Source: Fidelibacterota bacterium
Lineage (GTDB): Bacteria; Fidelibacterota; UBA8477; JABMPR01
Length of the DNA stretch: 64,000 bases
Direction of reading: 5' to 3'
Assembly: GCA_016784025.1 (NCBI GenBank)
Contig: JADHVL010000006.1
Span: 13,859-77,858, forward strand
Part shown: positions 28,585 through 64,000 of the stretch, one piece after another
Numbering within the stretch: the first letter of the stretch is position 1
Layout of the letters: each line of letters starts with the position of its first letter
Translations under genes and position numbers: made by a program
Notes under the pieces: model-generated
Database searches by the model: none
Told to the model about the DNA's origin: nothing
What the model saw: the letters and a program-made list of their open reading frames with translations, nothing else

Positions 28585-31500
28585 ATGAGAAAAGCGAGTC
28601 TATTCCTTATCATGTTAGTCCTGGCATCCACTACCATGGCAGCAACCACCGGCAAAATTTCTGGAGAGGTGGTTGAGCAGACCACCGGTGAAGCCATGAT
28701 CGGCGTCAATATCATTGTTGAAGGAACCAGCCTTGGGGCGGTTACTGATATTACTGGTTATTACGTCATACTTAATGTTCCACCAGGATATCAAACTTTA
28801 AAAGCGACCATGATTGGCTATTCACAATACACCATTGAAGATATCCGCGTAGAAATAGATCGAACTCAAACCGTTAATATTGAAATGGCAGAACAGGTAC
28901 TTGAAGGTGAATCAGTTGTGATCGTCGCTGAACGCAAAGTAATAAAGATGGATGTGGCTGCCAGCCAGCGCAGTGTTACAGCTGAGGGGATAGAGGAGTT
29001 GCCAGTCACTAGTATTTCCGAAGTATTGACCCTTCAGGCTGGAGTGAGTGGTTTTTCTGTCAGGGGTGGTGGAACTGAAGAAACAGCTCTCATGATTGAT
29101 GGGATTGAGTTGAAAGATGAGAGAACCAATAAACCAATCACAGGCATTCCACTTAGCTCGGTACAAGAAATTTCGGTTCAAACCGGTGGCTTTAGTGCTG
29201 AATATGGAAACGTTCGATCTGGTGTGGTGAATGTAGTAACCAAGGACGGAAGTGGTGGTTACAGTGGAACCCTGACTATCAAGCATAGCGCCGCAGAACC
29301 AAAGCATTTCGGTATATCACCCTATGATGAAGACTCGTTCTATATGAGGCCCTATCTTGATGATGCCGTAGCCTGGACCGGTACTGAGGTTGGTGAAACC
29401 TATACTGACGCCAATAACAATGGATATTGGGATGAAGGCGAAACCTTTACCGATTTTAACGAAGATGGAGCATACACGGTCTGGGATAAATACACCCAAC
29501 GTCAATATCCTTCATTTGTGGGCTGGAATGCAGTTTCAGAAGCCACGCTGGCAAATGATGATCCCTCAGACGATTTAACACCCTCAGCGGCAAAAAGATT
29601 ATTTGAATGGCAGTATCGCAAACCTGGAAATATTGTCAATCCTGATATAAACATTGATGGTGGTTTTGGGGGACCAGTTCCAGTTATCGGTGAGGACCTG
29701 GGCAATTTGAGATTTTTTCTTTCCTATAGACAGGAGAACAGTGAATACCTCTATCCTGTCTCTGAAAGCGGAACCCTGTCCAGGACGACCTTGCTGAGAC
29801 TGACTTCTGATGTGGACAAAACCAAAAAATTAAACTTTACCTATATGGCTGGAAATCTTACTGCTACCACCTCATCCAGAGGTGGACTAACCAGTTATAT
29901 GTCCTCAGTATGGGATCTGGCATCACAGGTCAACCGTTCGGGTTTCACCATGCCCTGGAGATTGTACTCCAATGAATACTGGGCACCTACAGCCGTTTCA
30001 CATGCAACCTATTCTGCAAAATTCACGCACTTGCTCAGCTCTTCCTCCTATTATGAGATCATAGCAAAACACATAAAGAAACAATATGATACAGCTCCAG
30101 GTCCTGAGAGAAATCTAGACAAAGTCTATGAGATATTTGATGGTTATTTTGTGGATGAAGGTCCAGTAGGCTTCTATGGTACTCCTGTTAGTACTATCGA
30201 TGGTAATATGAATATGGGTGGTGCAGTAAGTACCTCCCGAGATCAGTCTGTGGTAAAAACCACTGCCATTAGTGGAGACTATGTAAATCAAGTAAACCAG
30301 AACAACCAAATCAAGGCTGGATTTGATTTTGTGTATGATGATCTGGAAATGGAATTTGGTTCATTGAACTACTTTTTACCTGAAGGAAATTATTGGTCGC
30401 GGATGTATTACACTCCATATCGATTTACCACCTACCTCCAGGATAAAATGGAGTTTGAGGGTTTTATCGCTTCCCTGGGTCTCAACGCCGAGCTTATCAG
30501 TCCCAATACCTCATGGTACAAGGTTGACCCCTATGATGAAAGTTTTTACTCCTCAAGCTATAGCCAGAGTGCAGAGGACAACTTTGAGAAAGAGGATGTG
30601 AAGACACGCTTTTACCTGAGTCCGCGCTTGGCAATCTCACATCCCATCACCATTAATTCAAAATTGTATTTCAACTATGGTCATTATCGACAAGTCCCAA
30701 CCACTGAAAGTCTATTTAGAGTGCAACGCAAGGTGGTTCTCAATGGCGATCGAGAAATCGAAGATCTCACCCAACTGTCAATTATTGGTGATCCTAATCT
30801 GGATCAAGCCAGGACCATTTCATATGAGTTGGGCTATGACCATGCCTTATTTGATGCCTATCTACTCCATCTTGCTGCTTACTATAAGGATATTACTGAT
30901 CAACAGGACTGGACCCGCTACATCAGTGCCAGCGGTCAGGTGAATTATAGCCACCTCACAGCAAACAGTTATGAGGATATCAGGGGGTTTGAAGCTGATA
31001 TATCCAAAATGGTGGGTGACTGGATTACTGGAAATGTAAACTTTGAATATCGCGTAAATACCTCAGGCTATTTTGGTGTAAAACAATATTATCAAAATCC
31101 CAGCGAGCAGAGGGACTATCTGAAAAACAATTCAGTACAGAGTAAGCCGCGACCGACCCCACGGGTTAAATCAGTGGTGGATTTTCACACTCCTCGCAAC
31201 TTTGGACCTACCATCTTCAGCCAAAAACCACTGGCCGAATGGCATCTTAATGTATTGAGCAGTTGGAGAGCCGGTTCCTGGTTTGAATACAATCCCAGAG
31301 GCATAGAAGGTATTGGTTACAATTTTAGATGGCAGGATTCAAAATCAGTGGATTTGAAGATATCCAAGATTTTCAAGGCAGGAAAAATGAGTATCAAGTT
31401 TTTTGCTGACATCAACAATGCCTTGAATCTTAAAATATTTAGTGGGTATGGTTTTGAAGATATTCATGACTATGACTTCTATTTAGGCTCCCTATTGCTT

Positions 31501-31851
31501 CCTCAAGACAAATTAGATGCCATCGGTGAACCCGTTTTCCCTGGTATTGAGCACAATGATAATCCAGGTGATGTGAGACCAGACGATGTCGCCTTTGTAC
31601 CCATTGAATGGATTGCTGATGTGGATAAGCTGTCTGCCGACGCACGGAGTGAGCGTGGTATTTATTATGATGCAGCCACTGAGACTTACCTGCAATTCAA
31701 TCACGTCGCTGGTTGGGAAGAAGTTGAATCGAGCTTTCTGGATGAAGTGGTTGAGAATAAGGCATATATCGATATGCCCAACCAGGGTTCGTTCATATTT
31801 CTTTCACCCCAGGACATCTTTTTGGGTCTAAATATTTCTTATGATTTCTAG
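28585..31851 (+). CDS. TonB-dependent receptor-like outer-membrane protein 1 (CarboxypepD_reg + Plug + large barrel; Oar/SusC-like architecture)
   Basis: 1088 aa with a signal peptide. 'GKISGEVVEQTTGEAMIGVNIIVEG...TDITGYYVILNVPPGYQTLKATMIGY' is CarboxypepD_reg-like. The TonB-box-like strand is 'ESVVIVAER'. Plug and early barrel: 'VRGGGTEETALMIDG', 'GGFSAEYGNVRSGVVNVVTK'. The C-terminal residue is F. Confidence 0.85.
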   Translation: MRKASLFLIMLVLASTTMAATTGKISGEVVEQTTGEAMIGVNIIVEGTSLGAVTDITGYYVILNVPPGYQTLKATMIGYSQYTIEDIRVEIDRTQTVNIEMAEQVLEGESVVIVAERKVIKMDVAASQRSVTAEGIEELPVTSISEVLTLQAGVSGFSVRGGGTEETALMIDGIELKDERTNKPITGIPLSSVQEISVQTGGFSAEYGNVRSGVVNVVTKDGSGGYSGTLTIKHSAAEPKHFGISPYDEDSFYMRPYLDDAVAWTGTEVGETYTDANNNGYWDEGETFTDFNEDGAYTVWDKYTQRQYPSFVGWNAVSEATLANDDPSDDLTPSAAKRLFEWQYRKPGNIVNPDINIDGGFGGPVPVIGEDLGNLRFFLSYRQENSEYLYPVSESGTLSRTTLLRLTSDVDKTKKLNFTYMAGNLTATTSSRGGLTSYMSSVWDLASQVNRSGFTMPWRLYSNEYWAPTAVSHATYSAKFTHLLSSSSYYEIIAKHIKKQYDTAPGPERNLDKVYEIFDGYFVDEGPVGFYGTPVSTIDGNMNMGGAVSTSRDQSVVKTTAISGDYVNQVNQNNQIKAGFDFVYDDLEMEFGSLNYFLPEGNYWSRMYYTPYRFTTYLQDKMEFEGFIASLGLNAELISPNTSWYKVDPYDESFYSSSYSQSAEDNFEKEDVKTRFYLSPRLAISHPITINSKLYFNYGHYRQVPTTESLFRVQRKVVLNGDREIEDLTQLSIIGDPNLDQARTISYELGYDHALFDAYLLHLAAYYKDITDQQDWTRYISASGQVNYSHLTANSYEDIRGFEADISKMVGDWITGNVNFEYRVNTSGYFGVKQYYQNPSEQRDYLKNNSVQSKPRPTPRVKSVVDFHTPRNFGPTIFSQKPLAEWHLNVLSSWRAGSWFEYNPRGIEGIGYNFRWQDSKSVDLKISKIFKAGKMSIKFFADINNALNLKIFSGYGFEDIHDYDFYLGSLLLPQDKLDAIGEPVFPGIEHNDNPGDVRPDDVAFVPIEWIADVDKLSADARSERGIYYDAATETYLQFNHVAGWEEVESSFLDEVVENKAYIDMPNQGSFIFLSPQDIFLGLNISYDF

Positions 31852-31865
31852 AAGAATGCAGATGC

Positions 31866-33976: not shown

Positions 33977-35008
33977 ATGAGTATGAGGAAAAACACTAAT
34001 TCAAAAATTTGGCTAACCAGTAGTTTAGTCATCCTTGCGCTAGCATTTCTGATATCCTGTGAGGATTACCAACCAGTTGAGCCATTAGAAACAAATTATG
34101 ATGATATCGCCTGTGATCGACTCACAGGTAGGTTGGCCGAAGATTTCACGCTTCTGGATATAAATTTTCTGGGACCGCAATGGAGTGATGAGACAGTTGA
34201 CCGGGCCATGGCTGAGAATGAAAGAATCGGCGAGAGTTGGCTGGATGCAGATTCCATCATAACTCCTGATGTATTTGTCTTGCAGACAGAAGCGGGTATC
34301 ACCAGCATCTTTGCTTTTAATTCCTTTTTCTACAATTCTTCAGATGCAGCATTTGATAGTATTGAGATACACTTCCAAACACATCCAGTTGGATCTGCGG
34401 ATTTTAGTGCAGACCCTATTGATACCTTATGGGTACTGGGAAGCGCCGATGAAGATAAATACATAGATTTTGGTGTCGGTCTGGTCCCGGCAGATTCAAT
34501 CTGGGACATCATGATTTCCGGAGCTGCGGTCTCACTGGGAGAGCATACAGAAGTCTATCGATTGCAGGGACTTTCCTTGTTGGATTATTCAGATCTACCA
34601 GCAATGGCATATTTTGCAAGGGACACACTTGGTTTTGCCGTTGCTTATGAATATCTGGAGTCATTGAATAAAGAGTTGGTGGAGTTGAATACCACCTTCA
34701 ACATAATTCTGCCTGATCTACCAGAAATCAAAAATTCCTCCTATTGCCTGTTGGACCTGGAAGAAGCATCTGCAGGGACCTACATTTTCTATGCAGATGA
34801 TTTCTATGCATTTTCGGTCTTTGACACCAGTGGTATTGAGATGGTACCTACCTCAAACACCCTTGATATGGAGACTATCGCTGAATGTCACTTGATTAAA
34901 TCGAGAACAGTCTTCGAGTTTAGCCCCCAAAAATATTTTGTAAAATTTGATCCACAGGAGACTGTTGAAGAAACAGAGTTCCGACTATCCATTCTGAGGG
35001 AGGACTAA
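33977..35008 (+). CDS. Acidic lipoprotein of unknown function
   Basis: 343 aa with signal peptide and lipobox 'AFLISC|EDYQ'. No recognisable domain. It starts 5 nt after the upstream stop. Confidence 0.6.
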   Translation: MSMRKNTNSKIWLTSSLVILALAFLISCEDYQPVEPLETNYDDIACDRLTGRLAEDFTLLDINFLGPQWSDETVDRAMAENERIGESWLDADSIITPDVFVLQTEAGITSIFAFNSFFYNSSDAAFDSIEIHFQTHPVGSADFSADPIDTLWVLGSADEDKYIDFGVGLVPADSIWDIMISGAAVSLGEHTEVYRLQGLSLLDYSDLPAMAYFARDTLGFAVAYEYLESLNKELVELNTTFNIILPDLPEIKNSSYCLLDLEEASAGTYIFYADDFYAFSVFDTSGIEMVPTSNTLDMETIAECHLIKSRTVFEFSPQKYFVKFDPQETVEETEFRLSILRED

Positions 35009-35010
35009 AA

Positions 35011-36018
35011 ATGAGTCTAAGAAATCATTATATGAACATTTTGAGAATCCTGCTCATCCTTCCTCTCCTCAATGGCGGTCTGGCCATGGCTCAGATAAAA
35101 TTGGCTCAGTCTGGTGCTCAATTTTTAAGTGTTGATTCTGATGCCAAGGCCGGAGGTATGGCTGGAGCATTGACCACGGTTGAATCTAATTCTGCTTCAA
35201 TTTTCTTCAATCCGGCGGGAATGGCCAGAATGAATCCCAGCATTGACTTGATGGCCAGTCAGAATCAGTGGTTTGCAGATATCGCCTACAACTCCTTCTC
35301 CGCTGCCTTTAAACCAGGAACCGGTGAATTTGGTGTATTCGGACTGTCCTTTGTTTCAGTTGACTACGGAGAAATTCAGGGAACTCAGCGTTGGGACAAT
35401 GATCTGGGATATAAAGATACTGAGATACTCACACCTTCAGCGTTTGCTGCTGGATTTGGTTATGCCAAGTCTCTCAACGATAAGTTTTCAGTTGGTGCTC
35501 ATGTCAAGTACATCGGTCTTAATTATGGCAAGAGTATTTACCCCGATGATGATGGCAATCCTGATACGGTCAAGTCTCATCTGGCTTTCGCCAATGCTTT
35601 TGATTTTGGAACCATCTATAGGACTGGATGGAAGACGCTGGCTTTTGGTATGTCTGTGAAAAATTTCTCAAATGAAGTGGTTTTCGAAAAGGAAGGCTTT
35701 CAACTACCCCTGACCTTCACACTTGGCATATCAATGGATGCCTTTGAATTGGTGAGAAATGTCATGGGCCAGCAGATCATGTTAGTAAGCCTGGATGTGC
35801 TGCATTATCGCTCACACGCAGAGCAACTCAGAATTGGTTTTGAATACAAACCTATCGATATGCTTGCTCTACGAGCGGGATACATGTCTGCCAATGATGA
35901 GAATGATATTTCATTTGGTCTCGGAATCCAGCAATTCGGTCTTGCCTTTGATTATGCTTATGAGCCCTTCGGGCGCTTAGGCGATGTACAACGGATGACT
36001 GTCAGATTCTCTCTGTAA
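35011..36018 (+). CDS. PorV/PorQ-like outer-membrane beta-barrel (copy 1)
   Basis: 335 aa with a signal peptide. 'SGAQFLSVDSDAKAGGMAGALTTVESNSASIFFNPAGMA' matches the PorV/PorQ N-terminal signature (D-A-R/K-A-x-G-M-G...NPAG). It has alternating beta-strand character and a 'FDYAYEPFGRLGDVQRMTVRFSL' terminus. It is a paralog of 60356-61396. Confidence 0.65.
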   Translation: MSLRNHYMNILRILLILPLLNGGLAMAQIKLAQSGAQFLSVDSDAKAGGMAGALTTVESNSASIFFNPAGMARMNPSIDLMASQNQWFADIAYNSFSAAFKPGTGEFGVFGLSFVSVDYGEIQGTQRWDNDLGYKDTEILTPSAFAAGFGYAKSLNDKFSVGAHVKYIGLNYGKSIYPDDDGNPDTVKSHLAFANAFDFGTIYRTGWKTLAFGMSVKNFSNEVVFEKEGFQLPLTFTLGISMDAFELVRNVMGQQIMLVSLDVLHYRSHAEQLRIGFEYKPIDMLALRAGYMSANDENDISFGLGIQQFGLAFDYAYEPFGRLGDVQRMTVRFSL

Positions 36019-36036: not shown

Positions 36037-38979
36037 ATGTCTAATCAGATAAGGCGCGGAGTGTTATTACTGCTCATTTGTGTGAGCACAATAATTTCAG
36101 CAACCACAGGTAAGATTAGTGGTCATGTCACTGATTCAGAAACAGGTGACCCCCTGATTGGCGTAAATATTTTCATCTCTAATCTAGGTACTGGTGCCGC
36201 CACAGATATTGATGGCTATTATGCTATTCTAAACATCCGTCCAGGTAAGCATGAATTGCGCGCATCCATGATTGGTTACGCTCCTTTGGTTATGCAGAAT
36301 GTGGATGTGGTGATGGGACTCACATCAACCATCGATTTATCTATGTCCTCTGAAATTCTGGGCATGGAAGCGGTCACAGTTATCAGTGAGAGACCCATTG
36401 TTGCCAAGGATTTATCAGGGAGTCAGTTAAACGTGGATTCAGAGTCAATCCAACAATGGCCCATTTCCTCGGTTACTGCTGTACTGGGTGTCCAGGCCGG
36501 TGTTGAAAATATGCAGGTCAGGGGAGGCTCGATTTCCCAGACTGCGGTTATGGTTGATGGCTTCCTATCTAACGACAGTCGCTCAAATGCACCTGTGACA
36601 ACCTTGAGTTTGAGCTCTGTAGAAGAGATTCAGGTTCAATCCGGTGGATTCAATGCCGAGTATGGCAACATCCGGTCTGGTATTGTTAACATTGTGACAG
36701 CCGAGGGTCCAGCAGATCATTACTCAGGATCCTTCTACTATCAGAATAGTCCCGCTGCTCCCAAACACTATGGCATATCGCCTTTTGATGAGGATTCATA
36801 TTTTATGCGCCCCTATCTGGATGACGATGTTGCCTGGACTGGAACTGGAAGTGGTGGCTGGGATACATATACTCAAGATCAGTATCCAGGCTTTGAAGGT
36901 TGGAATTCATATAACAATACAGAAACTGGAATGACTGCATCGGCAGCACAACAGGAATGGATTTATGAACATCGCAGGACTGGTGAAATTACCAAACCAG
37001 ATCAAACACTGGACTTTGGTTTTGGTGGTCCTGCTCCTGGAATCTCAAAGCTTAGATTTTATCTATCCATAAGAAGTGAAGAAGAGCAATTTATTGTTCC
37101 CTTGTCCAGAGATGGATATAGCTCTAACTCCAGCCGTCTAAAATTGAATTATGATTTGAGCACCAATCAGAAGCTGGTTGCCACATTGCTTTATTCAGAA
37201 GAGCACTCAGTAAACCAATACAACTGGACCACAGTGCCTGAGGGCAATCTTTTACGTGGAACCTATAGTGTGGCTAATCTGGTGACACCAACAGGGTTAT
37301 TTACGCCTGCTTATTATAGCCCCTACTCAATATTCCGAGGACGATTTGATGTGAGTTATAACCATATGCTGAGTTCTGACTCCTATTATGAAATAGTCTT
37401 CCAACATGGGCAAACCCAATACCAGACTTATGAGATGGGTGCTCGAGACACCACGAAACTTGAAATATTTCCAGGCTATTTCCATGATGAAGCACCTTAT
37501 GGTTACAATTCTGCCGATTGGATGAACCTGGGACGGGATACCAGTCACACCAGCTCCACACTCCTGAAAGCAGACTATACCGACCAGATCAATTCAAGCA
37601 ATCAGCTCAAGATGGGGGTACAGGCCAATTTTTATGACCTGCAGATAAGATCCTACACCGAAAGTGATAAGGATACCTGGTCCAGGACCATGAACTATGA
37701 TGTAACTCCCATCAGGTTAAGTGCTTATGTTCAGGACAAACTTGAGTTTGAGGGATTCATTGCAAACCTGGGTCTTCGTGCAGAATATTCATCAGCCAAC
37801 ACCGATGTGTATGAACTGGATGCCTATGATGATCTTTTTAAACAAGGGCTGGGTAGTAATCTCGAGGAATTAGCAGAAAAACAAAATGCAAAATCCACAT
37901 TTACGCTAAGTCCAAGATTGGGAATTTCCCATCCCATAACCGATCATTCCAAATTGTATTTCAATTATGGACATTTTTACTCCGAAGCGGGTTCCACCTA
38001 CCGGTTCAGACTTCAGAGAGAATCCAACGGATTGGTCACCAATCTTGGTAACCCTGAACTGGAACAGGAGCGAACCATTGCCTATGAGTTGGGCTATTCA
38101 CATGGATTTAGTAACACATACATACTCGATTTAGCCACCTACTATAAAGACATTACACAACAACCGGGCTGGGTGATTTATAAGAATGCCACTGGCTCAG
38201 TCCACTATCGTAAGGCAGAAAGCAATAACTATCAGGATATTCGTGGTATTGAAGTCACGCTTAGTAAGCCCAAGGGTCGCATATTCTCAGGATTTATCAA
38301 TTATACCTATATGGTAAAGACCAGTGGCTATTTTGGACTGTTACGTCAGTTTCAGAATCCCCAGGAACAGCGAGATTATGAAAATCTCAACGTCGTGGAT
38401 AGCAAACCCAGAGCCCAACCCTATTTTCGTGCAAATCTTTCCATGAAAACTCCTCATAAATTTGGACCGTCTTTGGCTGGTATGCACCCCGCAGAAAGAT
38501 TTGAACTTAGTTTCCTGGCCAGCCACAAAACGGGAAGCCAATTTATTTATAATACTCCTGAGGCAGGGGATGTCTATGTCCAATGGTTGTCTCGATGGGA
38601 TGTGGATTTGCGTATTCAGAGATCCATTTCTGTAGGTGGTTCGTCTCTGGTGGCATTTTGTGATATTGCCAATCTCTTTGACCACAAATATTTGAGCTAT
38701 AGTGGCTTTTCAGATCAATTTGACTATGCTGATTATCTCACCTCTCTCAACTTTTCCTTCGAAGAGGGCATAAATCATGGGGATGATTATGTCGGTGCAT
38801 ATCGTGAAGATGATATAGCATATGAGGCTCTCGTGCCAAATCCTGATAATGATCCCCAAATTGCTGCAGACAATGAGCGCCGGCGGGAAACTAAATCATA
38901 CATCGATATGCCCAACTATCGATCTCTTACTTTCTTAAACCCCCGTAAATTCACTTTCGGGTTGAGGTTTAATTTCTGA
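36037..38979 (+). CDS. TonB-dependent receptor-like outer-membrane protein 2 (close paralog of receptor 1)
   Basis: 980 aa. 'GKISGHVTDSETGDPLIGVNIFIS', TonB-box-like 'EAVTVISER', and 'GGFNAEYGNIRSGIVNIVT...PKHYGISPFDEDSYFMRPYLDDDVAWTGT', which is collinear with receptor 1. It ends '...GLRFNF'. Confidence 0.85.
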   Translation: MSNQIRRGVLLLLICVSTIISATTGKISGHVTDSETGDPLIGVNIFISNLGTGAATDIDGYYAILNIRPGKHELRASMIGYAPLVMQNVDVVMGLTSTIDLSMSSEILGMEAVTVISERPIVAKDLSGSQLNVDSESIQQWPISSVTAVLGVQAGVENMQVRGGSISQTAVMVDGFLSNDSRSNAPVTTLSLSSVEEIQVQSGGFNAEYGNIRSGIVNIVTAEGPADHYSGSFYYQNSPAAPKHYGISPFDEDSYFMRPYLDDDVAWTGTGSGGWDTYTQDQYPGFEGWNSYNNTETGMTASAAQQEWIYEHRRTGEITKPDQTLDFGFGGPAPGISKLRFYLSIRSEEEQFIVPLSRDGYSSNSSRLKLNYDLSTNQKLVATLLYSEEHSVNQYNWTTVPEGNLLRGTYSVANLVTPTGLFTPAYYSPYSIFRGRFDVSYNHMLSSDSYYEIVFQHGQTQYQTYEMGARDTTKLEIFPGYFHDEAPYGYNSADWMNLGRDTSHTSSTLLKADYTDQINSSNQLKMGVQANFYDLQIRSYTESDKDTWSRTMNYDVTPIRLSAYVQDKLEFEGFIANLGLRAEYSSANTDVYELDAYDDLFKQGLGSNLEELAEKQNAKSTFTLSPRLGISHPITDHSKLYFNYGHFYSEAGSTYRFRLQRESNGLVTNLGNPELEQERTIAYELGYSHGFSNTYILDLATYYKDITQQPGWVIYKNATGSVHYRKAESNNYQDIRGIEVTLSKPKGRIFSGFINYTYMVKTSGYFGLLRQFQNPQEQRDYENLNVVDSKPRAQPYFRANLSMKTPHKFGPSLAGMHPAERFELSFLASHKTGSQFIYNTPEAGDVYVQWLSRWDVDLRIQRSISVGGSSLVAFCDIANLFDHKYLSYSGFSDQFDYADYLTSLNFSFEEGINHGDDYVGAYREDDIAYEALVPNPDNDPQIAADNERRRETKSYIDMPNYRSLTFLNPRKFTFGLRFNF

Positions 38980-41100: not shown

Positions 41101-42354
41101 ATGCAAAATACAGGACATAATCATATGAAATTACTTAAGAGTATTATCCATCCACTTGTGTTATTGAGTGCAACCTTCTTCATACTTATAGCCTGTGAGG
41201 AGGAGCCGAAAAGCATATACGATCCAAATGTCGAAGGCAATCCCGATCCGGTTATTGCGACGGTGGTGCCTGATAGCAATTTTAGCAGTAATAATATTTC
41301 GTTTGCAGGTATTGGAGTGGTCAATATTACGGGACAGAATTTTTCTTCAACTGTAGCTTATAACACCGTCTTCTTTGATGGAGTTCCTGGTACTGTGCTT
41401 TCCTCAACATTGACCCAACTTAGAGTACAAGTGCCAAACGTCACGGGAGACTCCGTTGAGGTTAAAGTTGCCGTTCGTGGCGCCTATTATTTTGCTGAAT
41501 ATTCCCAACCATTTCCAGTAGTGTCAGCTGTGAAGGAGGTTGGGGGTTTTATTGATAGTGACACATATATCTCAACAATTTCATGTGATAATTCCGGCAA
41601 TCTCTTTGTGAATGCAGGCAACCACCTCCATATCATTGAACAGGATAGTTTGCACACCTATTACGATTCGACCCGACTCACTGGAATTGGGAAAATGAAA
41701 ATGGGACCGGAGGGAAAAAATTATTTCATCATAACCACAGCCATTTCCAGAATAACCCCTCCAGATGTGGTGGAGAGTCTCTGGTTTAAAGCCCTGCCTG
41801 AAGCCTTGGTGGATTTTGATTTCAATGAAAATGGAACCATCTTTATTGCTGGAGTGTCTGGTTTGATTTATCCATTTGATGCAGAAACTAAAACCTATAC
41901 TGTGGATTCAACCTTTTATGGCCTAAAAATTAAAACCATTCGTGTGTTTGATGGGAATCTCTATGTGGTTGGTAATGAAGTTGATGATGCAGATGTAGTG
42001 CTGCAAAAAGGTATATATAGCAGTCAGATTACAGGAGATGACCTGGGAGAAAAACTGCTGCTGACAACTTTAGATGAATTGGATCTAGACGGAACCCTCT
42101 CTATTACATCAATAGCAATCTCTCAATCTGGTTCATTATTCTTAGGAAACATGACTGATCCTCCTCTTATCATTTACGAAAATGGTCAACTCTCCCCGTT
42201 TCATGAACCCATCCTTTCATCACCAATTGGAGCATTATCGTGGGGCAGTGGTGACTATTTATACATTGTTAGACAGGCTCGAGGCGATGTCACTCAGCGG
42301 GTTTTAGAACTCGATATGGGGCAGGCTGGTGCTATTTATTACGGACGAGATTAA
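41101..42354 (+). CDS. Lipoprotein with IPT/TIG-like domain followed by beta-propeller-like repeats
   Basis: 417 aa with lipobox 'FILIAC|EEE'. 'PVIATVVPDS...VNITGQNFSSTVAYNTVFFDGVPGTVLSSTLTQLRVQVP' is IPT/TIG-like. It is followed by repeated 'D.SGNLFV / NGTIFIAG / SGSLFLG / DYLYIV' blades. Confidence 0.6.
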   Translation: MQNTGHNHMKLLKSIIHPLVLLSATFFILIACEEEPKSIYDPNVEGNPDPVIATVVPDSNFSSNNISFAGIGVVNITGQNFSSTVAYNTVFFDGVPGTVLSSTLTQLRVQVPNVTGDSVEVKVAVRGAYYFAEYSQPFPVVSAVKEVGGFIDSDTYISTISCDNSGNLFVNAGNHLHIIEQDSLHTYYDSTRLTGIGKMKMGPEGKNYFIITTAISRITPPDVVESLWFKALPEALVDFDFNENGTIFIAGVSGLIYPFDAETKTYTVDSTFYGLKIKTIRVFDGNLYVVGNEVDDADVVLQKGIYSSQITGDDLGEKLLLTTLDELDLDGTLSITSIAISQSGSLFLGNMTDPPLIIYENGQLSPFHEPILSSPIGALSWGSGDYLYIVRQARGDVTQRVLELDMGQAGAIYYGRD

Positions 42355-47172: not shown

Positions 47173-47201
47173 AGCACCCGAATTTATTCGGGTGCTTTTT
47201 T
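47173..47201 (+). terminator. Rho-independent terminator after the GHL10 gene
   Basis: agcacccgaa-ttta-ttcgggtgct perfect 10-bp stem followed by TTTTT. Confidence 0.85.
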
Positions 47202-51743: not shown

Positions 51744-51850
51744 TTTTGTCCTCCTTTGTTGATTGACAATATTCACTCTCGATTAAATAAAAAGAATGGA
51801 TACATCTTAAGAGTGATCCATTCGTTTGTATGCCATTTGAAAGTGCCATA

Positions 51851-55000: not shown

Positions 55001-55582
55001 TTCTCCATCAATAAACGTCGGACAGGGCTGCTCTCTGCTTCAGCTGATTATACTTATCTGGTAGCTCAGGGAAATGCTTCCGATCCACTCGCACTATTTT
55101 ACGCCAATCAAAGTGATCCGCCAGCTGAGGTCATAAAACAGGTATTACCCCTGAATTGGGATCAAACCCATACCATAAATGTGAATATATCCCTCTCTGA
55201 GCCACAGAAGTGGGGAGTATCAATCCTCACCAAATATGGATCTGGTTTGCCCTATACACCTACCTATCAGGGGAGCTCGCTAGATGCACCCAACTCAGAT
55301 AGAAAACCTGATTATTTCAATGTTGATATAAATATGCACAAAGATGTGGTAATTGCTGGTCTGCATTGGACCGTATTTGCCAAAATATATAATGCGCTTA
55401 ACATCCAGAATGAGAGAAGTGTTTTCTCCGATACTGGACGAGCAACCTACTCGTTAATCCCAACCTACACACCCGACAATGGAAACATATACGGAAGACA
55501 CTCGCTAACAGACTATTTGACACGTCCCACATACTTTAGCAGTCCTCGTCAGTTCCGAATCGGTTTCTCAACAAGTTTCTAG
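52019..55582 (+). CDS. TonB-dependent receptor-like outer-membrane protein 3 (CarboxypepD_reg + Plug + barrel with large Ca-binding-repeat insertion)
   Basis: 1187 aa. 'GKISGRVIDAETGEGLIGVNVIVENTG', TonB-box-like 'QEVIVVAERP', 'IHIRGGRSSEVTYMIDG', 'GTFNAEYGQAMSGIINIITKEG'. The insertion holds about 6 D/N-x-D/N-x-D/N-G loops. It ends '...GFSTSF'. Confidence 0.85.
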   Translation: MSSVLVNLRRTILNVLILVLITTNLLAGTTGKISGRVIDAETGEGLIGVNVIVENTGMGASTDSEGIYFIINVPVGIFSVRAGMIGYTTQLMTEVSVRGDLTTEINFNMTVQVLESDQEVIVVAERPMVQKDLTSGRSIVSASEMAEMPVESLAGVIGTKAGIVSDAGGAIHIRGGRSSEVTYMIDGVPVTNLSSGGLGVGLETSAVQELQILSGTFNAEYGQAMSGIINIITKEGGEKYSGNLSAYMGDYYTENTRFFEHADEFDPSNIKNVELSLSGPVPGFGKNLNFFANGRYYDYGGLYRGVQEYSPNDVNYLTSKAVEELRDSPWGRAGLLNFAEPFTDLNEDGQLEPGSESYFDFDGNGSFTLGEPFRDINGDGRYNHNIDFNQNGYIDSEDWEFVDLNGDGVLTGDPFVDANHNGILDGEPYIDFNGNHMWDSGASGDSSIVRMNTSTRVNGMLKLTWRISPKMKLNTSIIHNSAQSQSYSMTNGFAYKYNPSGRPTNQSTSTSIIMDLRHSLNERMFYNIKGSFYQTTAKTFYIDVDPEELSEEKSFTYTDISQWADFLSDAVADPVSGIGMGSYYGSVSDSLLILKSDMTVSFYDSLSIGGDMFYVEDFFGQNTWTLGITNTWEEMSAPSWIEALTTPGITEWVKQIRFEFVINDLKKAYFLPNEISEQPVNEYLAGGHSHSYSQRINRTYLMSGDLTWQINNTHQFKGGVGFKTHSMAYKAYTVFVQKNLDWVPTIKDTESSFSNDSYDNWLTDAVSKLSLNTRTPREAYVYLQDKIELTDMIVNIGLRYDYFDPNYFVPSDYRDPENPKYWMYTLASSDSARIDTFFQFAGEVTAFDQILDTLDANGEPWRDYNGFYEDTEPVHQFSPRIGVAYPITDKGIIHFSYGHFFQIPTFSYLYSNPEMEISTASNESRLGNANLKPQKTVTYEIGLQQELTSDLGIEIIAFYKDFSGLLSLDQYEKYNTVSYMVYSNRDYGDTRGITFSINKRRTGLLSASADYTYLVAQGNASDPLALFYANQSDPPAEVIKQVLPLNWDQTHTINVNISLSEPQKWGVSILTKYGSGLPYTPTYQGSSLDAPNSDRKPDYFNVDINMHKDVVIAGLHWTVFAKIYNALNIQNERSVFSDTGRATYSLIPTYTPDNGNIYGRHSLTDYLTRPTYFSSPRQFRIGFSTSF

Positions 55583-55595: not shown

Positions 55596-58500
55596 ATGAA
55601 GAAGAATATTACCTTATTGCTCGCCTTCATCACCTTCATTGGTGTGCTGAACGCAGGATCAAATACAAATAATCCAGTCCCCGAAAACAAACTTGATCGG
55701 GCGGCTTGGTTGAAATACTACAACACGCTAGATCGACGCAACCACATGTCGAAAGCGTCTGCTCTCAGCGATCGCAAGGCTGGTACCCATAACGGAAATC
55801 GTGTCCGAACCCTGTTTTATAATTATGGTTCTATTGGACGCCCCAACACCGAGCCTTCCATGGAATGGCCCATTGGTTCTGGTCGTGGCTATGCCTTTGA
55901 GTTTGGTGTCGTCGCAGGTGCAAGAATCACCACCCATGGTGGCACATCTGATATCATCGTTAGTGATGGTCTCACTGTAGCAGGTGTTACCTATGATAAT
56001 AGCGGATTTGATAATAATCCCGGTGATTGGCAACCCCTGCCGGGTCATCACGATCCCTTCCAGTCATCCATCGCCATGAGCACCACTATTGATGACAACC
56101 GTGATGGGAAACCGGATTCGTGGCCCAGCAAATGGTTCAATCCAGCCTTCAACGACTTTATGTGGCCAGGTGAGTACGGCCAGGGTGTGACGACGGCAGA
56201 TCAGGAATCCTACTATGTAATGGATGACTTCTATATTAAGAGTCACAACACATATTGGCCACAACAAGGCTGGTCAGATTCACTAAGGGATGATGAATTT
56301 TACCCATCTTTTCCCATTGATACGGTAAGAGGTGGATTGGGTCTCCAGGTTGAATCACGCGGTTACCAATGGATCGCCACGCGAGCGCAAAATGTGATCT
56401 TCTTTGTATATGAATTAGAGAACGTAGGAAATGACACGCTGGACAATATGTACTTCGGAATGTACGGTGATCCCCATGTTGGCGGGGCATCGGACTACAA
56501 TGATGATGATGCCTATTTCGATACCTTTATTGATATTGTCTACGGCTGGGACGATAATGCCATCGGTGATCCAGTATTTGGTAACACCGTTCCAGGCTTC
56601 TTTGGTTATAAGTTTCTTGAATCACCAGGTGAACCTCGCGATGGCATTGACAATGATGATGATGGGATGATTGATGAATCTATGCAGGACGGCATCGATA
56701 ATGATGGTGACTGGCGTCCCTATTCAGATTGGAACCTTAGTAGTGAATGGGAACCAGGTGAACCAGTCAATGATGATTTAGGTACCGATGGTGTAGGTCC
56801 AGATGATGCCCAGTACGTCGCTCCTGATGTAGATGGTACTGAGGCAAATGGATTGCCTGATCCAGGGGAACCCAATTTTGATGAAAAAGACCTTGATGAA
56901 GCGGATCAGATAGGATTGACCGGATTTATCGTGGATCAATATGACAACAGTACTGAGACTGAAGATTACTATTATTCCAGTCGTCTCACTGCTCCAATTG
57001 ATACGGCAGCTTTCCAGCAACGGGCAGACAATATCTTTATGTACAGTTCAGGTCCAATTAAAATGGGTCCTGGTGATGTCCGTCGTTTTTCAATTGCCAT
57101 GCTATTTGGTTATAATATCAACGCAGCCACAGGTGAATACCTGTACGAAGACCCTCATAATACAAGGGACCTCTATGCTACAGCTGAAATTATGCAGGAA
57201 ATTTATGATGCAGGCTATCGTTTTGTTAAACCACCGAATAAGCCGCGCGTAACAGCTATTCCCGGTGACGGTCAGGTCACACTATATTGGGATGATGGCG
57301 CCGAACTTTCAAGAGACCCCCTTTATGGCAAGGATTTTGAGGGATATGCCATTTACCGGGCCACTGATTTTGGCTTTAATGAATCTTTGAATATTACCGA
57401 TACATATGGGAGTCCATACCTCTGGAATCCAATAGCCAAATTTGATCTGGATAACGGCTTATCAGGCCCTCATGAAGTGGAGCAGATTAAAAATTCCGGG
57501 CTTCATTTCGATATGGGTGCTAATTCAGGTCTTGTACACAGCTTTGTGGATAAAAACCTGGTCAATGGTCAGCGATATTTTTATGCGCTCTGTGCTTATG
57601 ACTCAGGATCAGCTATCGATACGATTCCACCTACTGAGACATCCAAAACAATCCAGGAAGATTTTGCAGGAAATGTCACCCTTGATATAAATACAGCAGT
57701 TGTGACACCTCAGGCACCATCAATTGGATATCTGCCTCCACAAATCACTGCAGTAGATGGCAGCGACGAACTACCTGGTACTGGAACCATTGATTTTAAA
57801 ATCATTGATCCGACGCAAATTCCAGATGGAAGAACCCTGGAACTTCGCTTTCTTGATTCAGGAATGGATGAAATTGATAATGATGGTGATTGGGATTCCT
57901 ATGCTGACATGGATCAGATAAGGGACAATGGGATATACGTTGATATGATTATCCCGGCCAGCGAGGATAGCATTATCTATTCCAGTACTTTAACTGAAAG
58001 AGTTGTACTCGAGGGTCTTGTGGGTAACGTTTTTGAGCACAATGGATTTGAGTGGGAAATCAAGACCTGGCTGGAAGGACCTACAATTACAACTGATACA
58101 GTAATTATCTATCCAGATGCTTTTGAAATTGGCCCCACCATGGATGTCTGGAACCCAGCCATCGATGGCAGTGTAAATGATGATGTGGGCTCAGATGGCT
58201 GTTCTGATGAATATGAGCTTGGTGGTGGCAACTGCTCTGAGGCAATAGTGGCGTCTCCTGGTGATGATCCAAATGGTGATAATTGGGATCCATTGACTAA
58301 TCCAGATGGAACCGAAGCCAATGGCAAACCAAATGCAGGTGAGCCAGATGTGGATTTAAGAGATTTTCAGGAACTGGTGATGGAAACTGAATCCTTCTCA
58401 ATCGTTGATGTCACCGATCCAGCAAATGAAATCCCATTCGTTGATACTCAATACGGGATTCATGGAGAGGATTTTAATCAGATAAGCAATGGGATTCAAG

Positions 58501-60344: not shown

Positions 60345-60355
60345 GGAGATTGACC

Positions 60356-61396
60356 ATGTATAAGAAAATGATCATGCTCCTTGTAATTGCAGTTTCAATG
60401 AGCTTTGGACAGTACAAAGGTGGTACAACTGCAGCACAATTCCTCAAAATAGGTATTGGTAGCCGTGCAACTGGTATGGGCGAGGCATATGTCGCTATGA
60501 GTCAGGATGCCTCTGGACTCTATTGGAATCCGGCTGGTATAGCCCAGGCTGGTGGTGGCGAAATCATGTTCCTCAGAAACAATTGGATTGCCGATGTAGC
60601 CATCAATTATCTGGGTGTCATTTTTCCGCTCTATGGTGTTGGAACCGTTGGCATTAGTATCACCTCATTAACAATGGATGATATGCCGGTTACTACTGAG
60701 CTGGAACCCAATGGAACTGGTGAGGAATTTACCGCCAGTGATTTAGCCTTGCAAGTGACCCTGGCAAGATCGCTTACGGATAGATTTTCCATTGGATTTA
60801 ACGGAAAATATATCCAGCAGACCATCTGGCATAGCCGTGCCAGTGCCATGGCGGTTGATGTGGGTACCTTGTTTAGAACCCAGTTTAATGATATGCGTCT
60901 CGGCATGAGCATCTCCAATTATGGATCAGGTATGAGAATGTCTGGCCGGGATATTCTTGAGCGCTATGACCCAGCACCTGGCTTTGAAGGCAACAACGAT
61001 GCTATTCCTGTAGACTATGCTCTGGATGATTGGGATTTACCCCTCATCTTCCGGGTTGGGGTAGCCATGGACGTGATTGAATTGGGTGTGACTAAGTTGA
61101 CGGTAGCGGTGGATGCCATTCATCCCAATGATAATTATGAATCTATCAACATTGGTACCGAACTGAGCGTGTTGGATAAATACTTTCTTAGAGGAGGTTG
61201 GAAATCACCTTTCGTAGAGACCAACACCAGCCTGGCAGCATCCGAGCTGGAAACTCGCGAGGAAGGCTTCACATTTGGTGCAGGATTTGATCTACCAATT
61301 TTTGGATCAGCTTCAGGGTTGAGATTTGATTATGCGTATGCCGATTTCGGGCGATTGAATAATGTGCAAAGATTTAATCTGAGTCTGTATTTTTAA
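60356..61396 (+). CDS. PorV/PorQ-like outer-membrane beta-barrel (copy 2)
   Basis: The start is moved to ATG 60356 (MYKKMIMLL..., AAGGAG SD 7 nt upstream) from the track's TTG at 60350. 'TAAQFLKIGIGSRATGMGEAYVAMSQDASGLYWNPAGIA'. The terminus is 'RFDYAYADFGRLNNVQRFNLSLYF'. Confidence 0.65.
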   Translation: MYKKMIMLLVIAVSMSFGQYKGGTTAAQFLKIGIGSRATGMGEAYVAMSQDASGLYWNPAGIAQAGGGEIMFLRNNWIADVAINYLGVIFPLYGVGTVGISITSLTMDDMPVTTELEPNGTGEEFTASDLALQVTLARSLTDRFSIGFNGKYIQQTIWHSRASAMAVDVGTLFRTQFNDMRLGMSISNYGSGMRMSGRDILERYDPAPGFEGNNDAIPVDYALDDWDLPLIFRVGVAMDVIELGVTKLTVAVDAIHPNDNYESINIGTELSVLDKYFLRGGWKSPFVETNTSLAASELETREEGFTFGAGFDLPIFGSASGLRFDYAYADFGRLNNVQRFNLSLYF

Positions 61397-61485: not shown

Positions 61486-61524
61486 ATATAGGTTGTTAAC
61501 AGAAACAATTAAGGCGAGACTGGT

Positions 61525-64000
61525 ATGAAAAATCTATGTCGTATATCTCTGATTTTATTGATTGGGGCACAATTTCTCTTTTCAGGGACTTCAGGAAAAT
61601 TGACGGGTCGGGTGACCGATCAAAGTACAGGTGAAGCCCTTATTGGAGTAAATGTTTTTCTACCAGCCACCGGTCAGGGTGGCGCAACCGATTTAGATGG
61701 AAATTTCTACATACTGAACATCGCACCAGGTGAATATCAACTCCGCTGTTCCATGATTGGTTATTCAGAACAGGTCATCGACGGAATTCGGATAATGATT
61801 GATTTGACCACAACCCAGGATGTGCAGATGACGCTCAGCATTATTGAGGGAGACGTGGTCACCGTCACGGCAGACCGATCCATGATACAGGCTGATATTA
61901 CGCATGCACAGGCGAATATAAGTTCTGCCGAATTAGAAGCATTGCCTGTTGAGTCATTCCAGGCTGCAGTCTCACTACAGGCTGGTGTGGTTGTGGATGG
62001 TGCTGGAGCCATTCATATCAGGGGCGGACGCTCCTCTGAAGTCGCCTATTTGATCGATGGGATACCTGTGACCAACTCCTATGGTCAGAACATGGGTGTC
62101 GGCATCGAAAACAATGCGATTCAGGAACTTCAGGTCATTTCAGGAACATTTAATGCTGAATACGGCCAGGCCATGTCAGGTATTATCAATATTATTACCA
62201 AGGATGGAAGCTTGAGTGATTACTCTGGAGAGTTGAGCTACCGTTACGGTCGCTATATCTCAATGGATCCTGAAATATATCTTGGTATCATTCCAGGAGA
62301 TCTGGCTTTGAAAGATGATATCGATATTTCCAAGGTAGATATTTTCGGTACGAATCCAGATGTTTTTACACCCCAGGGCAGACATGATTTTCAATGGAGT
62401 ATGAGTGGTCCAGTACCAGGATTGTCAAAGAGTACGTCATTTTTCACCTCTGGAAGATATGAAGATTTAGCTGGTCGCCTGTATGGTGTACGACGTTTTA
62501 ATACAGATTCATTTTATTGGGATAACACCAATTCCATGCCCATCGAGAATGGTGAATACTTTTCTGACTATATTGATTATGGCGAGGATGGCTGTCCCGA
62601 TGAATATGAAAATGGGACAGGCGGCTGTGCCAGTGTACCCCTTAATCTTGGTGGTGACCCCAATGGAGACAATTGGGATTTCTATCTCAACCCCAACGGC
62701 GGAGAGGGCAATAATATCCGTGATGGAGGTGAATCGGGGAATGGTTTGTGGGATGGTGGCGATCGTGTATATCCGGTTGATCCTGATGTATATCTCGATA
62801 ATGCCACAGGTACCTGGTATCGTGATGTTGATGGAAATGGAGAATGGAACTCAGATGTAGATACAGATGTCGGTTTTCCACAATTCACCTATGAAGATGT
62901 CGATGGCAACGGAGCCTTGAGTGGGGAATGGTATTTTGATGGAGATCAAAACGGTGAATGGACCAATATGCGTGGTGACAACGCCGTGGTACCTCTCTAT
63001 AGCTCGAAGAGTCTTAATTTACAGGGCAAACTAACACACCGATTCTCACAACAATTGAAACTTTCTTTAAATGTCCTTTATGGAAGTTCCCAAACCTACA
63101 ACAGCAATGGCTTAAATTGGAAATATACTCCTGAGGGTCGAGCTACTTCCTATGGGACCAATATGAACATCGGTCTGGTGTTGCAGCATACCCTCAGCCC
63201 AGAGGCATTTTACAGTGTTAAAGCATCAATCCTGGGAAACTTTGGCCGATCCTATTATGAACCAATTTATGATGTAAACTGGAATCAGCTTTTTATGTCA
63301 AACATGTTCAATATCTCAGATTTTGACATGCCCGCTGATACTTCCTATGACACCAACAATCTGGAGGAATATGAGAATGACAATAACATTCTGGATGCCT
63401 CAATCGGTCAGAAATTTAATTTAGGTGGAATATCAAAATATCATCTTTATCGAATGACTCGCAGCCAGCTCATCAAATTTGATATGACCAATCAGGTAAA
63501 TAATATGCACCAGCTTCAGGGTGGTCTTGAATACAAATATACCAGCATTTTCCGTAGGGATTTTTCCATTATTTATGATCCTGCAGAAGGCTATTCCACC
63601 CCTCAAATCCTAACCCCAAATGTGAGTCCCTCAACACCAACTTACAGTGAGATGATTAAACATCCGTCTGAGTTTGCAGTCTATCTCCAGGATAAAATTG
63701 AAGTGGTTGATATGATTGTTAACGCAGGAATTCGATACGAAATATTTGATCCCGATGGTGTGACACCCTCAGATCCTGCAGATCCCAACCCCAGGTCTCC
63801 GCTAAAATTGATCAACAGATTCCATGATACAGATGGAGATGGTCAGATTTCAGAGGAAGAAGCAATAGATACCAATGCTAAAACCCTGGAAGATCGCATG
63901 GAGTACTGGTTCAAGGAAGCCTCAAAGAAGGTTCAGTTCAGCCCACGACTTGCTATGGCTTATCCCATCACAGATAAAGGTGTGTTGCATTTCTCCTATG
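61525..64000 (+). CDS. TonB-dependent receptor-like outer-membrane protein 4 (5' partial; runs off the window; absent from the ORF track)
   Basis: I translated frame 1 from ATG 61525 to 64000 by hand and found no stop. 'MKNLCRISLILLIGAQFLFSGTSGKLTGRVTDQSTGEALIGVNVFL', 'GDVVTVTADR', 'IHIRGGRSSEVAYLIDG' and 'GTFNAEYGQAMSGIINIITKDG' are collinear with receptor 3. The end '...FSPRLAMAYPITDKGVLHFSY' matches receptor 3 '...FSPRIGVAYPITDKGIIHFSY'. Confidence 0.85.
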   Translation, partial: MKNLCRISLILLIGAQFLFSGTSGKLTGRVTDQSTGEALIGVNVFLPATGQGGATDLDGNFYILNIAPGEYQLRCSMIGYSEQVIDGIRIMIDLTTTQDVQMTLSIIEGDVVTVTADRSMIQADITHAQANISSAELEALPVESFQAAVSLQAGVVVDGAGAIHIRGGRSSEVAYLIDGIPVTNSYGQNMGVGIENNAIQELQVISGTFNAEYGQAMSGIINIITKDGSLSDYSGELSYRYGRYISMDPEIYLGIIPGDLALKDDIDISKVDIFGTNPDVFTPQGRHDFQWSMSGPVPGLSKSTSFFTSGRYEDLAGRLYGVRRFNTDSFYWDNTNSMPIENGEYFSDYIDYGEDGCPDEYENGTGGCASVPLNLGGDPNGDNWDFYLNPNGGEGNNIRDGGESGNGLWDGGDRVYPVDPDVYLDNATGTWYRDVDGNGEWNSDVDTDVGFPQFTYEDVDGNGALSGEWYFDGDQNGEWTNMRGDNAVVPLYSSKSLNLQGKLTHRFSQQLKLSLNVLYGSSQTYNSNGLNWKYTPEGRATSYGTNMNIGLVLQHTLSPEAFYSVKASILGNFGRSYYEPIYDVNWNQLFMSNMFNISDFDMPADTSYDTNNLEEYENDNNILDASIGQKFNLGGISKYHLYRMTRSQLIKFDMTNQVNNMHQLQGGLEYKYTSIFRRDFSIIYDPAEGYSTPQILTPNVSPSTPTYSEMIKHPSEFAVYLQDKIEVVDMIVNAGIRYEIFDPDGVTPSDPADPNPRSPLKLINRFHDTDGDGQISEEEAIDTNAKTLEDRMEYWFKEASKKVQFSPRLAMAYPITDKGVLHFSY

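Follow-up and report, generated by a model that had tools for sequence, protein, structure and literature searches.

Polymer uptake by Bacteroidota has its textbook account in the SusC/SusD system. To our knowledge, it is largely unexplained in other degraders of the Fibrobacterota-Chlorobiota-Bacteroidota (FCB) group, among them SAR406/Marinimicrobia of the dark ocean, Calditrichota and KSB1 of sediments, and Ignavibacteriota. We examined a 64,000-nt stretch of DNA (hereafter the window) from a Fidelibacterota bacterium (assembly GCA_016784025.1, contig JADHVL010000006.1, 13,859 to 77,858, forward strand), in which four large outer-membrane transporters (T1 to T4) are encoded in cassettes with secreted partner proteins (P1 to P3) and barrels of the PorV/PorQ family (V1 and V2). 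[quoted passage not shown] Outside Bacteroidota, the module is found widely in the FCB group.

Likeness to SusC/SusD (RagA/RagB) begins with the TonB-dependent transporter (TBDT), which in both cases carries an N-terminal CarboxypepD_reg-like extension, a TonB box, and a plug. It extends to a partner gene immediately 3' and translationally coupled, to cognate pairs that have duplicated and diversified, and to loci that also encode surface lipoproteins with immunoglobulin (Ig)-like N-terminal domains, secreted enzymes, inner-membrane symporters, and regulators. In contrast, T fails the SusC/RagA model and has no SusD beside it, the place being taken by P, which is beta-rich, is neither a SusD nor a lipoprotein, and has a Sec signal peptide together with a T9SS-type C-terminal domain (CTD). 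A PorV-family barrel also belongs to the conserved core here, and the gene content of loci of the P1/P2 type is nearly fixed across phyla.

Three other described systems come close. In Bacteroides, BtuB is a TBDT served by a beta-rich surface partner that is not SusD-like (cited in PMC12578637, ref 94), and other TBDTs there also form complexes with non-SusD surface proteins. The partner of BtuB, BtuG, is a lipid-anchored beta-propeller, whereas the anchor proposed here is a CTD on a PorV-like barrel; we found no sequence relationship. T9SS cargo-carrier pairs resemble this module in having a C-terminal sandwich, here of about seven strands in the model of P1 and homologous by profile comparison to type A CTDs, and a dedicated barrel gene adjoining the cargo gene; in a published model, the carrier receives its cargo at the translocon and is able to retain it at the surface (PMC10994853). 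The carrier in the window is of the PorV/PorQ family rather than PorP/SprF-like, as for type B cargo, the CTD forms its own highly conserved subclass, marked by an insertion after strand 1, the cargo is paired with a TBDT, and the organisms lie outside Bacteroidota. Finally, Oar of Myxococcus xanthus combines CarboxypepD_reg, a plug, and a very large barrel without SusD, and relatives of T3 match the Oar-like barrel model PF25183. T1 and T2 miss that model, the gene contexts here point to import, and no CTD partner or PorV-like neighbor is described for Oar (PMC6434023).

The only possible prior sighting that we found in the literature is in the xylan locus of Rhodothermus marinus, where a table lists the TBDT Rmar_1070 followed by Rmar_1071, a hypothetical protein with a Por CTD, the two being predicted to be cotranscribed with a xylanase (PMC6987092). 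That locus differs in also having a classical SusC/SusD pair, and the source leaves the Rmar_1070/1071 pair without comment. Both systems can coexist in Ignavibacteriota, since SusCDE is present in Melioribacter roseus (PMC3534657). The first-pass annotation of this DNA knew of no described system with this architecture, and we likewise found no description in the searchable literature, in which subscription papers are thinly covered, so that absence is not proof. Uptake by a TBDT with a partner is itself known; what is apparently new is a TBDT and surface partner for uptake built from T9SS parts.

Transporters and their partners

The analysis covered positions 28585 to 64000 of the window, with Pfam and NCBIfam profile scans of open reading frames (ORFs) of at least 150 amino acids (aa). 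On the plus strand, the gene order is T1, P1, a lipoprotein, V1, T2, P2, three further genes that we call G, S, and H, and a terminator-like hairpin; the genes from T1 through H form a single operon. Two minus-strand genes follow 3' of the hairpin (DUF92, and an FG-GAP repeat protein with a CTD), and then T3, P3, V2, and T4 on the plus strand.

T1 (28585-31851, 1,088 aa) has CarbopepD_reg_2 and Plug domains (66 and 43 bits), the TonB box ESVVIVAER, and a divergent barrel. T2 (36037-38979, 980 aa) has the same two Pfam domains, as do T3 (52019-55582, 1,187 aa), which represents a second subfamily, and T4 (61525-64000), which runs past the window end. In all four, both domains exceed the Pfam cut-offs and a signal peptide is present. 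The TonB-box strings that the first-pass annotation had named for the four barrels were confirmed; they are moderately conserved among 74 T1 and 41 T2 orthologues, which keep the consensus E-x-V-x-V-x-A-E-R and the plug motifs. The complete barrels, T1, T2, and T3, all terminate in F, as had been noted. With Plug above cut-off and a TonB box in T1 to T4 and the terminal F in T1 to T3, these proteins have the characters of TBDTs.

Sequence identity marks the four as paralogues far beyond chance. T1 and T2 share 39% over their full length, T3 and T4 share 35%, and the T1/T2 and T3/T4 subfamilies are about 40% identical across the N-terminal 240 aa. The iteration had been described as a four-fold cassette. 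We find ancient paralogy that has been kept across phyla, and a recent, local four-fold amplification is rejected, as T1/P1 and T2/P2 each make up an orthologous group of their own in the various phyla. A relative at 91% identity (L171) has the order T3-P3-V-T4-P4-V, and there the fourth cassette is complete, extending past the part covered by the window. Its partner, P4, is a 1,600-aa paralogue of P3 (35% identical) and is followed by a third PorV-like barrel, V3.

The barrels are less easily classified. The SusC/RagA model TIGR04056 gave only 52 to 70 bits (65 bits for T1) against a cut-off of 368, with matches mostly in the N-terminal 230 residues. No Pfam barrel model matched T1 or T2 even at E <= 5, the Oar-like PF25183 included, and PF25183 was unmatched by any transporter of the window at that threshold. 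Pfam recognizes a barrel in T3 alone (PF00593, 96 bits), and T3-type relatives in two other loci (L089 and L090) match PF25183. One possibility raised by the Oar-type layout of T, with its CarboxypepD_reg domain, plug, and large barrel, is that T works in reverse, moving P or another protein outward to be received by V, much as Oar is needed for secretion of PopC in Myxococcus (PMC6434023). We judge this improbable despite the PF25183 matches of T3 relatives. P already has a route out of the cell in its Sec signal peptide and T9SS-type CTD, T1 and T2 lack the Oar-like match, the TonB box and plug are kept as in importers, and the neighboring genes are of catabolic or uptake types (SSF, ROK, GH94, NamZ, diaminopimelate [DAP] decarboxylase) that fit import.

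Each complete transporter is followed by a secreted partner, as first reported, at gaps of 0 to 35 nt and, for T2 and P2, with overlapping stop and start codons (TGATG). P1 (31866-33971, about 694 to 701 aa) comprises a beta-rich N-terminal domain (N-domain), a helix, a fibronectin type III (FN3) domain, and the T9SS-type CTD; translation probably begins at M8 (31887), which is invariant in the alignment of P1/P2 relatives. P2 (38979-41081, 700 aa) is 39% identical to P1 over 700 aa (BLASTP, E = 6e-146). Neither belongs to a Pfam or NCBIfam family, and a sequence search of the PDB gave only a marginal FN3 match (E = 0.06). P3 (55587/55596-60344, 1,582 to 1,585 aa) has a DxDxDG-rich beta N-domain, FN3, middle domains, a propeller-like region, and a CTD.

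The partners had been taken for one shared family. That description holds for P1 and P2 over their full length and for all partners in architecture and fold, whereas the N-terminal sequence of P3 is not detectably related to theirs. When a profile of 45 P1/P2 relatives was compared with one of 26 P3 relatives, only the C-terminal ~120 aa aligned (E = 9e-20); an hhalign run on the trimmed alignments added the helix-FN3 module (E = 1e-11), and its alignment of the P1/P2 with the P3/P4 N-domains was not significant (E = 0.04). What the partners have in common is therefore a layout (a supersandwich-type N-domain followed by a helix, FN3, in some cases extra domains, and the CTD) and not a single sequence family.

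AlphaFold models of P1 (AlphaFold2 [AF2], pLDDT 88) and of P3 residues 1 to 760 (pLDDT 74) are both beta-rich with few helices. The two models weakly retrieve the same PDB folds (TM 0.2-0.25), namely GH94 cellobiose and chitobiose phosphorylases, dextran dextrinase, the phosphorylase domain of cyclic-glucan synthase, and FN3; GH116 was retrieved in the same range by the P3 model alone. The search found no catalytic domain in this region of either protein, (alpha/alpha)6 domains included. Because the models contain few helices, the matches may correspond to the noncatalytic N-terminal beta-supersandwich of those enzymes, a reading taken from the helix content of the models and not from alignments. 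No SusD-like protein was found in the cassettes: both partner models are beta-rich with few helices, and the cassette proteins match no SusD family in Pfam or NCBIfam.

Scored homologues of P1 number 710, at about 50% identity; annotated as "fibronectin" or "hypothetical," they come from Marinimicrobia/Fidelibacterota, KSB1, Calditrichota, WOR-3, Melioribacteraceae, Stahlbacteria, and other groups. When each GTDB species was represented by one genome, a scan confirmed at least 591 places with P1/P2 relatives, spanning Marinimicrobia, KSB1, Calditrichota, Ignavibacteriota, and others. Against 1.84 billion cluster representatives, the P1/P2 profile matched 520 clusters at E <= 1e-30, 3114 at E <= 1e-10, and 9149 at E <= 1e-3 (HMMER), variants of 1,200 to 1,600 aa among them. 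The P3 family has more than 3247 homologues of 975 to 1,600 aa.

For P1/P2, gene order was counted in 80 genome loci, sampled at species level in several phyla, and for P3/P4 in 79 metagenome loci. The partner adjoins its cognate TBDT elsewhere too: T lies directly 5' of P in 102 of 107 testable P1/P2 cases and in 60 of 66 for P3/P4. T1 is paired with P1 in 66 cases and T2 with P2 in 36, the pairs are never crossed, and the median intergenic gap is 16 nt, with many overlaps. The subfamilies mirror one another, T1/T2 going with P1/P2 and T3/T4 with P3/P4. V follows within 3 kb downstream of P1/P2-type partners (68/76 testable) and directly downstream of P3/P4-type partners (60/66 testable). The order T-P-V-G, often with S, T2-P2, and H added, is nearly invariant in the 80 loci. 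Median identities between the window and other phyla are 48% for T1, 50% for P1, 47% for V, 47% for T2, and 56% for P2, compared with 30% for G and 32% for S.

Some details of these proteins stand apart. Proteins P0247, P0249, P0250, P0252, and others, of 1,200 to 1,600 aa, join a P1-like N-domain and FN3 to about 900 extra residues, and other matches to the P1/P2 profile carry an N-terminal extension of 430 to 630 aa; by these matches, the P1/P2 family also includes P3-like long architectures. Calcium-binding-like DxDxDG and DxNxNG repeats occur in loops of T1 and T3, in the latter as acidic inserts, and in the N-domain of P3. A loop of T4 (~62575-62775, aa ~350-410) and the middle of P3 (~58180-58380, aa ~866-925) have in common a 67-aa acidic, Cys-containing segment (46% identity, E = 1e-14; DxGxDGCxDEYExGxGxC...DPNGDNWD...NPxGxExN), which might serve the two proteins as a common insert for Ca-dependent contact or binding.

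Partner C-terminal domains and PorV-family barrels

The T9SS-type CTD reported for the partners stands at the level of homology and falls short at the level of the family model. PF18962 was unmatched by partner CTDs, and all three scored just under the TIGR04183 cut-off. Profiles of the partner CTDs aligned with a profile of canonical CTDs, compiled from proteins of the S, H, and FG-GAP types in the sampled loci, at hhalign probabilities of 95 to 96% (E = 2e-8 and 6.5e-9), with the PNP...GxY...K motifs in register and a family-specific insertion after strand 1. The insertion is common to P1 through P4. In the AF2 model of P1, the region is a C-terminal beta-sandwich of about seven strands (residues 608-699).

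Within the P1/P2 family, and in contrast to ordinary CTDs, the CTD is the best-conserved part, with a mean top-residue frequency of 0.77 and near-invariant residues in 43% of columns versus 26% in the N-domain. Both of the two most conserved peptide patterns, picked for locus finding, fall within it. Such conservation is expected of a retained interaction domain. FN3 and the CTD are also the sole sequence element common to all partners, and V is the only other common component besides T. Because these are what all cassette types share, we link the CTD to V.

V1 (35011-36018) scored 176.8 bits and V2 (60350-61396) 203.3 bits with NF033709 (cut-off 90), in agreement with the initial view that two cassettes end in a PorV/PorQ-family barrel. 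V2, which is 29% identical to V1, also matched Pfam PorV (34.7 bits, cut-off 27), and FadL, checked as an alternative family, was not supported (FadL/Toluene_X, 26 bits, under the 29.7 cut-off). The best scores with the equivalog models of this family were 47 to 89 bits against cut-offs of 250, 220, and 325, with PorQ the best for V2. Since those cut-offs are missed, V is placed by sequence as a separate branch of the PorV/PorQ family. V1 is the proposed carrier or anchor for the CTDs of both P1 and P2.

In the attachment complex of P. gingivalis, PorZ and PorU keep their CTDs on PorQ and PorV, a precedent that counts for a quite different interpretation, in which P and V are PorZ/PorQ- or PorU/PorV-like parts of a secretion or attachment apparatus that merely sit beside TBDT genes. 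Partner CTDs do show weak local matches to the PorZ C terminus (NF052228), P3 has faint PorZ_N_b_propeller and Reg_prop matches, and the best equivalog of V2 is PorQ. We nevertheless consider this interpretation very improbable. The PorZ matches are confined to the CTD and reach 19 bits against a cut-off of 260, genomes hold several paralogous P-V sets with each P tied to its own T subfamily, and thousands of diversified family members with variable catabolic neighbors are unlike a single housekeeping apparatus.

Gene contexts and a proposed route of uptake

Because the genes flanking P1/P2 loci are mostly unrelated housekeeping genes, the P1/P2 locus is a self-contained block. Genes directly 5' of T1 include a ROK protein with a helix-turn-helix (HTH) domain in several lineages and, in several loci, some labeled Marinimicrobia, a fusion of GH3 with a beta-lactamase domain. 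RmNag3, which is of this GH3 fusion type, is a beta-N-acetylglucosaminidase (PMC6987092). In a Melioribacteraceae locus (L003, 2743-6548), a Reg_prop/Y_Y_Y/HisKA_3 sensor kinase and a GerE-type response regulator lie directly 5' of T1; this pair, absent from the window, resembles the hybrid two-component glycan sensors of Bacteroides polysaccharide utilization loci (PULs).

The window itself holds a GH3 and beta-lactamase-domain fusion (8134-11118, minus strand) with the architecture of the characterized enzyme RmNag3, adjoined by a sugar nucleotidyltransferase with hexapeptide repeats (11148-12365, minus strand), itself adjoined by a ROK+HTH protein (12660-13910, plus strand). These GH3-fusion and ROK families, found directly 5' of T1 in other genomes, are here 15 to 20 kb off.

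P3-type neighborhoods are variable and PUL-like. Examples are CBM9 - T - P - V - SSF symporter - ROK - GH94; GH18+CTD - NamZ - T - P - V, followed further on by SSF - LD-carboxypeptidase S66 - S13 peptidase; and GHL10 - T - P - V - T - P - V. Flanking proteins of 82 P3-type loci (79 from metagenomes and 3 from look-ups) were clustered with at least 60% length coverage required. An Amidase_2 (MurNAc-L-Ala amidase) protein with a CTD recurred in 19 of these loci (in the gene maps that were read, just downstream of V), along with GH18+CTD in 10, the exo-muramidase NamZ in 9, and an ornithine/DAP decarboxylase in 7. The first-pass annotation had weighed a SusC/SusD analogue against an Oar-like export module. 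Contexts that hold symporters, ROK proteins, and glycan or muropeptide enzymes lead us to favor the import side and to disfavor export.

The last gene of the T1 operon, H (44034-47144, plus strand), combines a GHL10 domain (PF02638, 123.5 bits) with two Big_5 domains and a canonical T9SS CTD, and is the only CAZyme-like protein found between 28585 and 64000, as originally noted. It is 24% identical to Escherichia coli DigH (b1491) over 363 aa (E = 1e-25) and, with both the GHL10 match and the DigH similarity, is a predicted GHL10/DigH-like glycosyl hydrolase. DigH itself, a glycosyl hydrolase of the divisome, has denuded peptidoglycan strands as its substrate (PMC12288456). Nine loci of the set examined for it encode a GHL10-domain protein, mostly at the 3' end of the block. 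The best lead for the substrate is possibly an amino-sugar glycan, such as peptidoglycan-derived strands; for the window's own cassettes, support for peptidoglycan or amino sugars is weak and comes mainly from H. An Amidase_3 cluster that seemed to span 14 loci in P1/P2 flanks was discarded, its members having been joined through Big_5 and CTD similarity, with an actual amidase domain in one locus only (L023).

In the route we propose, P would pass the inner membrane via Sec and the outer membrane via the type IX system, and it would exit the translocon tethered to V, the carrier barrel of the same cassette, through its divergent but unusually conserved type-A-like CTD. It would then remain at the surface beside T, capture substrate, and hand it over for TonB-powered import, thus doing for T what the SusD lipoprotein, or BtuG, does for its transporter in Bacteroidota. 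The proposal that the CTD is held on V, that the partner serves as a lid, and that T, P, and V form one machine draws on gene linkage, on CTD conservation, and on the precedent from Bacteroidota that a cognate carrier takes T9SS cargo off the translocon, PorV in the case of type A CTDs, while the alternative carriers of type B CTDs then anchor their cargo at the surface (PMC10994853). As a dedicated carrier or anchor of the partner CTD, V would explain the strong conservation of that domain and would place P beside its cognate T. What the data show is the anatomy, the family memberships, the conservation across phyla, the strict T-P pairing, and the PUL-like contexts; T9SS export, retention of the CTD on V, contact between T and P, the direction of transport, and the substrate are what we infer.

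A looser version keeps the uptake role and dispenses with the lid: P would be ordinary T9SS cargo, V a mere shuttle, and the CTD would be cleaved, leaving P as a lipopolysaccharide-anchored or released binder or enzyme that is not docked to T. PUL-like contexts fit a lid and a surface glycan-binding protein alike, the large multidomain P3 and P4 resemble surface binding proteins, the partner CTD is homologous to type A CTDs that are cleavable, and the window holds no separate V for T2-P2. What makes this version seem unlikely is that the CTD is the best-conserved region and carries an insertion in P1 through P4, which is unusual for a disposable signal, and that the strict pairing and translational coupling of T and P are those of SusC-SusD pairs.

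The uptake module with a docked partner, which we prefer, has several observations to contend with. V1 and V2 fail the cut-offs of the PorV, PorQ, and PorV2 equivalogs (NF033710, NF033711, NF052325), T2-P2 would have to share V1, having no barrel of its own in the window, and the partner CTDs scored 21.3, 19.0, and 19.7 bits with TIGR04183, whose cut-off is 23. The weakness of the N-domain fold matches makes glycan binding merely suggestive. A T9SS translocon in the source genome is suggested solely by three window proteins with canonical CTDs. The gene content of P1/P2 loci, set among mostly unrelated housekeeping flanks, is unusually uniform for a PUL. As for the substrate, the first peptidoglycan clue, the Amidase_3 cluster, was an artifact of CTD similarity, and the peptidoglycan-type contexts belong to relatives of P3 rather than to the window, and many of the metagenome loci concerned may derive from related organisms.

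A more far-reaching version, which we put forward tentatively and with somewhat less than even confidence, is that a third class of T9SS sorting domain and its own PorV-family carrier together make a TBDT lid that needs no lipid anchor, in a phylum-spanning and SusD-independent import system of Marinimicrobia, Calditrichota, KSB1, Ignavibacteriota, and relatives, of which subsets would be specialized in scavenging peptidoglycan from dead cells. Should the favored uptake reading be right, the conserved T-P-V triad, with partner relatives confirmed in at least 591 places and in thousands of protein clusters, would stand beside SusC/SusD as another general way of taking up polymers. Nutrient import would be linked directly with type IX secretion, and a new class of CTD-carrier pair would be defined. 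The triad would also provide a genomic marker of substrate-specific loci in uncultured lineages, and the peptidoglycan-type enzyme sets beside many modules would open marine and sedimentary turnover of bacterial necromass to direct tests.

Accessory genes and the rest of the window

Between P1 and V1 lies a fast-evolving lipoprotein (33977-35008, plus strand, 343 aa) with an LISC lipobox, acidic residues after the Cys, and no family match. Its orthologues in close Marinimicrobia (L006-L012) have diverged to 27 to 32% identity while the flanking genes stay above 70%, and all seven have acidic residues after the lipobox. The lipoprotein is absent in other phyla, where a different small ORF or nothing occupies the position.

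G (41101-42354, plus strand) is a lipoprotein with an N-terminal IPT/TIG Ig-like domain (Pfam TIG, 37 bits) and a beta-rich body. It was present in 68 of the 80 loci, mostly right 3' of V, at about 30% identity across phyla, and acidic residues frequently follow the lipobox Cys; G is a candidate surface binding protein. S (42459-43865, plus strand), which recurs in the locus across genomes, has an SGL-type beta-propeller (33 bits) and a canonical type A CTD (Por_Secre_tail 36 bits, TIGR04183 40 bits). Together with H, these proteins would be accessory binders or enzymes.

Divergent from T3 and 5' of it is the FG-GAP repeat protein (48900-51776, minus strand; FG-GAP_3, 81 bits), which also ends in a canonical CTD (Por_Secre_tail, 28 bits). 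Its family recurs beside T3-type modules, in 19 of the 82 clustered P3-type loci. Such neighbors, together with large FN3/propeller surface proteins and the fact that carrier-anchored type B cargo of Bacteroidota are gliding adhesins (PMC10994853), would also fit a surface adhesion, S-layer, or gliding structure for which T is only a scaffold. That T conserves its TonB box and plug, that the gene contexts are catabolic, and that no gliding genes were seen in the loci examined make this the least probable of the readings considered.

Transcription of the T1-to-H unit would close at the terminator-like hairpin (47173-47196, plus strand), the top-scoring site of a terminator scan, with a 10-bp stem that includes six GC pairs and a following T run. 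An Rfam scan 5' of every transporter found no riboswitch, and a sigma-70 promoter scan found sites no more numerous than in shuffled sequence. Among ORFs of the analyzed region, we found no match to SusD/RagB, to extracytoplasmic function (ECF) sigma or anti-sigma factors, or to hybrid two-component regulators, in line with the absences first listed.

The closest genomes are metagenome-assembled genomes of Candidatus Neomarinimicrobiota, at 91 to 95% protein identity. The sequence 5' of position 28585 carries housekeeping genes, such as polA and a miaB-like gene. Unrelated to the module are two tRNA genes (5134-5321, minus strand) and a protein with a prepilin-type N-terminal methylation motif (18537-19010, minus strand). 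Near the start of the window (539-1816), this Marinimicrobia genome encodes a protein with the Fibrobacter succinogenes major paralogous domain (Fib_succ_major, 150 bits).

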